Below, one piece after another: positions 496-1,338 of a stretch of 64,000 nucleotides of DNA. The notes below the pieces were generated by a model. It did no database searches, was not told the DNA's origin, and saw only the letters and a program-made list of their open reading frames with translations. This stretch comes from Escherichia phage 121/2022-2B. A program made the position numbers and the translations under genes. The stretch's first letter is position 1. Each line of letters begins with the position of its first letter. Where the stretch lies: the sequence record OR958571.1. One strand, written 5' to 3'.

Positions 496-1338
496 TTAAT
501 CAACTGCTATTGGATGAATAGCATTAAACTTATGAAATGCTTCTGATTTTTCTTTACGCGAAACACACATGCGAAGAACCTTTAGTGGTTCATCTTCTTC
601 ACCCAACGATTTTCGTTTTTCAATATTCGATGTTTTCCAACGAGCTTGCTCTGGAAACTCTCTATTGATTTGCTCAAGAGCTCTATTATGTTTAGAATTA
701 CTGCGAATTGAACTGCACCCGCCAGGAGCTTGTGCTTTTCCAGATACAACCAGATATTTGAACAAGGCCAAATGCGGATAACCTTGATTAATTAAATTGA
801 GAAATGCATACATATCTTCGCATAAATCAATTTTTCCATACCCAATTTGTTCTGTGGTAAGTTTTCCGAGGTCATACCATGTATTCGTGAATCCATATGA
901 ATTTTCACGATAATTACCCCAAGATGAAGTAATTTTAAAAATAGGTAGACGAGCATGACCATGATAATACCCGCAATCCATGGCATCCTCAACATATTGA
1001 ATCAATTCATAGAACTGTTCACGAGTTAATTGATTAATTTTATCTACACAACGACGATCATCTCTTTTTCGCATTGAGCTCATACGAATAGTAGTATCAT
1101 CGTCAATCATCCAGATTCGTTGACCTGCATACATATCAGTAATTGCTTTACGAGTACCGGCAATTCCGTTTACATCATCAGGAATAGTTATAATTTTAGC
1201 TCTAGACCCATAAGCGTCATGATAAGCTTTTTCTTCATGTTCACGCACTACAATATGGGGTTCATAATCAGTCGGAAACATATCAAGGGCAGAAACTGCC
1301 CCGACACGCTGATAACTTGGAATTACGAATTGAATCAT
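496..1338 (-). CDS. hypothetical protein occupying the beta-glucosyltransferase slot between uvsX and 42
   Basis: ORF track 282 aa; the track start is GTG, first ATG is at 1338 and overlaps the gene 42 stop (ATGA). No motif I can assign; does not resemble T4 beta-gt as I recall it. Confidence 0.55.
   Translation of the reverse strand: MIQFVIPSYQRVGAVSALDMFPTDYEPHIVVREHEEKAYHDAYGSRAKIITIPDDVNGIAGTRKAITDMYAGQRIWMIDDDTTIRMSSMRKRDDRRCVDKINQLTREQFYELIQYVEDAMDCGYYHGHARLPIFKITSSWGNYRENSYGFTNTWYDLGKLTTEQIGYGKIDLCEDMYAFLNLINQGYPHLALFKYLVVSGKAQAPGGCSSIRSNSKHNRALEQINREFPEQARWKTSNIEKRKSLGEEDEPLKVLRMCVSRKEKSEAFHKFNAIHPIAVD

Follow-up and report, generated by a model that had tools for sequence, protein, structure and literature searches.

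The locus and its surroundings

Which enzyme stands, in Escherichia phage 121/2022-2B, in the slot adjoining gene 42 that T4 devotes to its beta-glucosyltransferase (b-gt), and what would it add to the hydroxymethylcytosine (hmC) of the phage DNA? Within the window (the whole stretch of DNA analysed, 64 kb of record OR958571.1), the space between uvsX and gene 42 holds a 280-aa open reading frame on the minus strand (496..1338), running from an ATG at 1336-1338 to a TAA at 496-498, which almost certainly encodes the T2/T6-type beta-glucosyl-HMC-alpha-glucosyltransferase (ggt, ba-gt; Pfam TAGT), which is responsible for the second glucose. The bases of this assignment are of two kinds: identity, synteny, family membership, predicted fold, motifs, the presence of alpha-gt and the absence of beta-gt are drawn from the window, and the reaction and modification levels from published work on near-identical enzymes. 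The size, slot and coordinates (496-1338) given by the initial annotation were all confirmed, and the strand, which it had left unstated, is the minus one. A mechanical list of open reading frames extends the gene to 496..1344 (-), from a GTG two codons upstream of the ATG; the ATG at 1336-1338 is the start in all annotated relatives of ggt. The frame is a real gene and not a chance opening, because it matches PHROG 842 (E = 9e-89), has a homologue in 688 phage records and specifies a protein whose exact sequence is public.

On the upstream side, gene 42 (1335..2075, minus strand) encodes dCMP hydroxymethylase (97.6% identical to T4 gp42; Pfam Thymidylat_synt), and its stop overlaps the start of ggt, as had been noticed initially: read on the minus strand, the junction is ...GAGTGGAAATGATTC..., in which the ggt ATG and the gene 42 TGA share the tetranucleotide ATGA. 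Judged from this overlap alone, ggt is probably co-transcribed and translationally coupled with gene 42. A consensus scan of 300-2600 lent no support to a dedicated ggt promoter (10 promoter-like sites, 11.2 expected) and returned 2 terminator-like sites (0.9 expected). Within the coding sequence, 36 nt from its start (1286-1302, minus strand; ggt codons 13-18), there is a GC-rich hairpin with a T-rich run behind it (GGGGCAGTTTCTGCCCT TGATATGTTT), unchanged in T2 and T6; it could modulate the expression of ggt relative to gene 42, or it may mean nothing, since 2 terminator-like sites against 0.9 expected are not above chance.

On the downstream side, uvsX (minus strand) starts at 418 and runs off the left edge of the window, separated from the ggt stop by a 77-nt spacer (419-495, minus strand) that is identical in T2 and T6. 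This spacer carries a TGCCTAA-11 nt-TATAAT arrangement, preceded by TGTGT, that resembles a T4 middle (MotA-dependent) promoter for uvsX. In T4 the homing endonuclease gene segA is inserted between uvsX and beta-gt, whereas the window is devoid of it: searches by tblastn detected no homologue of T4 beta-gt or T4 segA anywhere in the 64 kb. The same approach, with T4 alpha-gt as query, located the DNA alpha-glucosyltransferase gene (alpha-gt) at 13301..14503 on the minus strand, where T4 residues 1-400 align to 14503-13304 at 91% identity and without an internal stop; the alpha-gt that had been claimed to lie elsewhere in the window is therefore there, intact and at full length (400 aa).

The gap between gene 42 and imm is filled by a strongly hydrophobic 49-aa open reading frame (2083-2232, minus strand; MKSKIIAALLLILMVIISIYYSVTVPLMIPTIILGWSLLLLQVKYECIN), the stop of which overlaps the imm start. 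It is kept at the protein level in T4, T2 and T6, reference records of which leave the 153-nt gap unannotated; it is entered as 'Phage protein' in phages EH2 and Geo, and the record of RB69ORF054c notes similarity to the T4 42-imm intercistronic region. It is likely to be the gene of a small membrane protein that is absent from the classic annotations. As for gene 42 itself, RefSeq re-annotation calls it 'thymidylate synthase' in T4 and many relatives; dCMP hydroxymethylase is a thymidylate synthase homologue with a different product, and such a family-level name could mislead automated pathway calls.

Family assignment and closest relatives

Described initially as unassigned, the gene proved to have a name already, as dozens of records give it the designation beta-glucosyl-HMC-alpha-glucosyltransferase. 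A tblastn search of 50,697 phage records found a homologue in 688, many of which bear the name of the T2/T6 enzyme. The homologue is at least 95% identical in 471 of these 688 records (Escherichia, Shigella, Yersinia and similar Tequatrovirus phages) and 60-80% identical in about 200 (Klebsiella, Enterobacter and Salmonella phages). The protein matches PHROG 842 (beta-glucosyl-HMC-alpha-glucosyltransferase) over its full length (E = 9.4e-89) and Pfam PF20691 (TET-associated glycosyltransferase, TAGT) with 40.7 bits against a gathering cutoff of 27.5 (E = 3.3e-10), residues 3-207 being aligned to profile positions 2-205 of 205. An identical protein is public (QZI78754.1 of phage vB_EcoM-101112UKE3-1, MZ234013.1; UniRef100_A0AAU6NTI2), and the cluster formed at 90% identity counts 485 members. 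The wider TAGT family became visible when 1.84 billion representatives were searched exhaustively with a profile, which gave 2166 members at E <= 0.001; a word-indexed protein search had given 11 matches. The family name implies hmC made by TET/JBP dioxygenases; T-even hmC stems instead from dCMP hydroxymethylase and is then acted upon by alpha-gt.

The T2 gene has the same dimensions as that of the window (280 aa, 843 nt, with the same 4-nt gene 42 overlap), and its product is 99% identical, differing by four substitutions (R11H, H40Y, I101V and P251S; the window residue is given first here and below). The T6 product, encoded in the same uvsX/gene 42 slot, is 98-99% identical and differs by H40N, D55G, I101V and R106H, in addition to the lesions of the T6 records described below. 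The gene order uvsX-ggt-42-imm-43 is common to T2 (MH751506, AP018813), T6 (MH550421, AP018814) and the window, and alpha-gt is the partner gene in T2 and T6 as it is here; the T2/T6 type, put forward initially as one possible modifying enzyme, is upheld by the identity, the slot and the overlap. At the DNA level, the first 3 kb of the window are matched best (98.2%) by the Durham Collection phage vB_Eco_EH2 (OZ034684.1), whose gene order equals that of the window, including the small open reading frame between gene 42 and imm, and whose enzyme differs by H40Y and I101V, with no other difference detected in the region. Neither H40 nor I101 is usual in the relatives compared, yet both positions are variable.

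One record similar over all 3 kb (98% identity) is PV654520.1, a 142-kb genome deposited as 'Pseudomonas phage vB_PSGBLB0006' (host Pseudomonas aeruginosa ATCC 9027), which, for a match to this Tequatrovirus region, points to a wrong host label or to contamination of the deposited isolate.

Both T6 records carry lesions in ggt. In MH550421 (L001:3138-3980) codon 10 is changed from CAG to the amber TAG, and the gene is annotated from Met20 (261 aa), while AP018814/NC_054907 (L005:161-1000) has a 3-nt in-frame deletion by which one Asp of the DDD (DxD) motif is lost. The window gene has neither the codon 10 amber nor the one-Asp deletion. T6 being the standard example of a phage rich in gentiobiosyl-hmC, the lesions are either tolerated or a sign that the enzyme has been lost or weakened in some laboratory stocks.

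Predicted fold and conserved residues

An AlphaFold2 model of moderate quality, built with nine homologues (pTM 0.76, mean pLDDT 73.6), has an N-terminal core of alternating strands and helices at pLDDT 85-95, and drops below 50 in residues 131-140, 192-212, 238-248 and 278-280. The predicted fold is of the GT-A type, near GT2-type enzymes, so that the question of whether the protein has a glycosyltransferase fold at all, on which the initial annotation made its proposal depend, is answered by the model in the affirmative. A sequence search of the PDB found no solved structure of any family member, the matches being those expected by chance (E > 1).

For the analysis of conservation, the window protein was aligned with 143 full-length representatives (144 sequences, 17-44% identity). 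All family-conserved residues are present in it, and R11, R63, D79-D81, D175, G206-G207 and R212 are each shared by 93-100% of the 144. R11 (1306..1308, minus strand) belongs to the IPSYQR motif at the end of the first strand, in the nucleotide-binding core, and is Arg in 142 of 142 aligned sequences (2 gaps), as well as in all 24 close relatives whose sequence includes the N-terminus; I6 and P7 of the same N-terminal motif are also conserved. R63 recurs in 134 of the 144 sequences. The DxD motif, which in GT-A enzymes binds the metal and the UDP-sugar, is formed by D79-D80-D81 (1096..1104, minus strand; reverse complement GACGATGAT), with Asp in 142/144, 144/144 and 137/144 sequences, respectively. 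Further along the chain lie an invariant Asp (D175; 814..816, minus strand; 144/144), G186 (99%), G206 (143/144), G207 (144/144) and R212 (141/144). This pattern is that of a metal-dependent GT-A enzyme. UDP-alpha-glucose as donor and a beta linkage in the product require an inverting reaction, and D175 is, by analogy with GT2-type enzymes, a candidate for its catalytic base.

Relation to other phage DNA glycosyltransferases

The two other enzyme types with which the initial annotation had proposed to compare the protein, T4 beta-gt and the arabinosyltransferases (represented by the putative ones of RB69 1-45 kb), showed no detectable similarity to it, and only the T2/T6 type was matched. With respect to T4 beta-gt (PF09198, GT63, GT-B), the best BLASTP value was E = 7.2 and PF09198 gave no match at E <= 1. 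A divergent beta-gt was likewise rejected, as a TAGT profile (built from 144 diverse family sequences and run with all filters off) did not match T4 b-gt, and tblastn with T4 b-gt came back empty in the window. This profile matched the ggt frame alone in the window (E = 4e-76) and nothing in T4 19-45 kb. The T4 alpha-gt (PF11440, GT72, GT-B) was set aside too (best BLASTP E = 1.3, no Pfam match), the real alpha-gt being a separate gene.

For an arabinosyltransferase of the RB69 (Mosigvirus) type, the profile was run against the open reading frames of RB69 1-45000, where its best value (E = 0.59) fell in gene 62, and on this result the arabinosyltransferase reading was rejected; this 45-kb stretch holds putative arabinosyltransferases (between rIIA and gene 39, and in a sugar-gene cluster adjoining gene 43) together with arabinose-precursor genes. 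No arabinose-precursor cluster was found at the equivalent position in the window.

T4 b-gt and ggt share the slot adjoining gene 42, the use of UDP-glucose and a beta linkage on phage DNA; they differ in fold and acceptor, the former being a GT-B enzyme that acts on bare hmC and the latter a GT-A enzyme that acts on alpha-glucosyl-hmC. The earlier claim that a different protein fills the T4 beta-gt slot is hence borne out, by the lack of similarity as by the absence of beta-gt from the 64 kb, and ggt is a non-homologous replacement at this locus. Among GT-encoding phages, most combine either an alpha-GT or a beta-GT with a TAGT, and alpha-GT and beta-GT occur together in just 6 of 753 genomes, T4 included (PMC13216743); it follows that the alpha-gt plus TAGT set of the window is the common arrangement and T4 the exception.

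Function of near-identical enzymes and predicted DNA modification

The gene is already known, intact and typical of Tequatrovirus, and the chemistry has been measured in a phage whose enzyme is two residues away. In EH2 DNA, HPLC/MS gave approximately one third hmdC and two thirds alpha-gentiobiosyl-hmdC, with alpha-glucosyl-hmdC in trace amounts and the beta-glucosyl form absent, and the authors held the TAGT gene, which stands in the place of T4 beta-gt, responsible for the second glucose (PMC13390438). In this closest sequenced relative, then, the DNA does not carry alpha-glucosyl-hmC alone, the case in which the initial annotation would have given up its proposal. Deletion of ba-gt leaves T6 with alpha-glucosyl-hmC alone; the Brig1 glycosylase can then degrade its DNA, and the mutant shows greater Brig1 sensitivity in vivo (PMC11078745). 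Furthermore, BapA frees glucose from T6 delta-g-gt DNA and not from that of wild-type T6 (bioRxiv 10.64898/2026.02.25.707755). The T6 TAGT has itself been modelled as a GT-A enzyme, sister to GT2 (PMC13216743, 2026). The transfer by ggt of a beta-1,6 glucose from UDP-glucose onto alpha-glucosyl-hmC is thus supported through the near-identical T6 and EH2 enzymes, the original biochemistry of the T2/T6 gene being taken second-hand, from reviews and recent papers.

On this basis, the pathway in the window would begin with gene 42 making hm-dCMP, from which the polymerase would place hmC into DNA during replication; the product of alpha-gt (13301..14503) would then move glucose from UDP-glucose to hmC in alpha linkage, and the ggt enzyme would add the second glucose, beta-1,6 and again from UDP-glucose, giving alpha-gentiobiosyl-hmC. 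By analogy, we predict T6/EH2-like DNA, with about two thirds gentiobiosyl-hmC, about one third bare hmC, little alpha-glucosyl-hmC and no beta-glucosyl-hmC, because R11 and P251 are retained and two residues separate the enzyme from that of EH2. The quantitative nucleoside profile is the least certain part of the prediction, because the gentiobiosyl fraction varies among near-identical enzymes (T2 approximately 5%, Geo, EL and BGP 1:2:2, EH2 approximately two thirds).

The low value of T2 may have its origin in the enzyme. T2 DNA is reported to contain approximately 5% gentiobiosyl-hmC, as against approximately 70% in T6 and EH2. Both T2 records (MH751506, L002:3286-4128; AP018813, L006:783-1625) have His at ggt residue 11, which is Arg in every other family member examined, and the T2 and EH2 enzymes differ at R11H and P251S alone, P251 lying in a variable, mostly gapped region. 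The T2 phenotype could be that of a hypomorphic R11H allele; if this reading is true, the window allele (R11, P251) would be a fully active one. That variation in ggt, and not in alpha-gt or in the level of expression, decides how much hmC of T-even phages bears one glucose and how much bears two is a broader idea that we advance tentatively and consider rather doubtful.

Alternative readings

The same T2 case bears on the possibility that the window gene, although a ba-gt orthologue, is a weak allele of the T2 kind, which would leave mostly alpha-glucosyl-hmC with a few percent gentiobiosyl-hmC. The T2 enzyme is full-length and four residues away, and yet goes with the low fraction reported for T2; in addition, the 1:2:2 nucleoside profile of Geo, EL and BGP (PMC13390438) accompanies an enzyme that, in Geo, differs from the window protein by seven substitutions, and such intermediate and low profiles imply that the ratio is not predictable from family membership alone. 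However, the window protein keeps the Arg that all 142 aligned representatives have at residue 11 and that is His in T2 alone, keeps P251 as do EH2 and T6, and is separated from EH2 only at H40 and I101, both at variable positions; we therefore regard a weak allele as improbable. Still far less probable is a non-functional remnant. The codon 10 amber of MH550421 and the lost Asp of AP018814 give this reading what weight it has, as they imply that loss-of-function ggt alleles circulate in laboratory stocks; against it, the window frame is intact from ATG to TAA, every invariant family residue is present, and the identical protein recurs in independent isolates within a cluster of 485 members.

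An altered specificity (for a sugar other than glucose, for instance arabinose, or for bare hmC or beta-glucosyl-hmC as acceptor), with a modification unlike that of T2 and T6, draws on the diversity of the family. Distant TAGT members are 17-44% identical and may use other acceptors, some homologues adjoin a beta-GT or stand without any alpha- or beta-GT (PMC13216743), and Serratia phage PS2 has a homologue at 48-49% identity, so that the TAGT family as a whole is likely heterogeneous in acceptor. For the window protein, the 98-99% identity to the T2, T6 and EH2 enzymes makes such a change very unlikely, the window has alpha-gt and neither beta-gt nor arabinose-pathway genes, and the family profile has no match among the RB69 1-45 kb open reading frames; we give this reading next to no credence. 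The T2/T6-type enzyme acting on alpha-glucosyl-hmC is thus the reading that we retain.

Significance

Nothing new is learned about the gene as such, identical or near-identical copies of which are present in hundreds of sequenced Tequatrovirus genomes and the function of which has been shown genetically in T6. The gene matters in that it decides whether phage hmC bears one glucose or gentiobiose, and with it the sensitivity to host defences that read these sugars: gentiobiosyl-hmC DNA resists the Brig1 glycosylase in vitro as well as the BapA deglucosylase, and is still cut by GmrSD-type enzymes (PMC11078745, bioRxiv 10.64898/2026.02.25.707755, PMC13216743). For genome annotation, and for the prediction of host range in phage therapy, 'T6-like, alpha-gt plus TAGT, no beta-gt' is a useful label for this phage.
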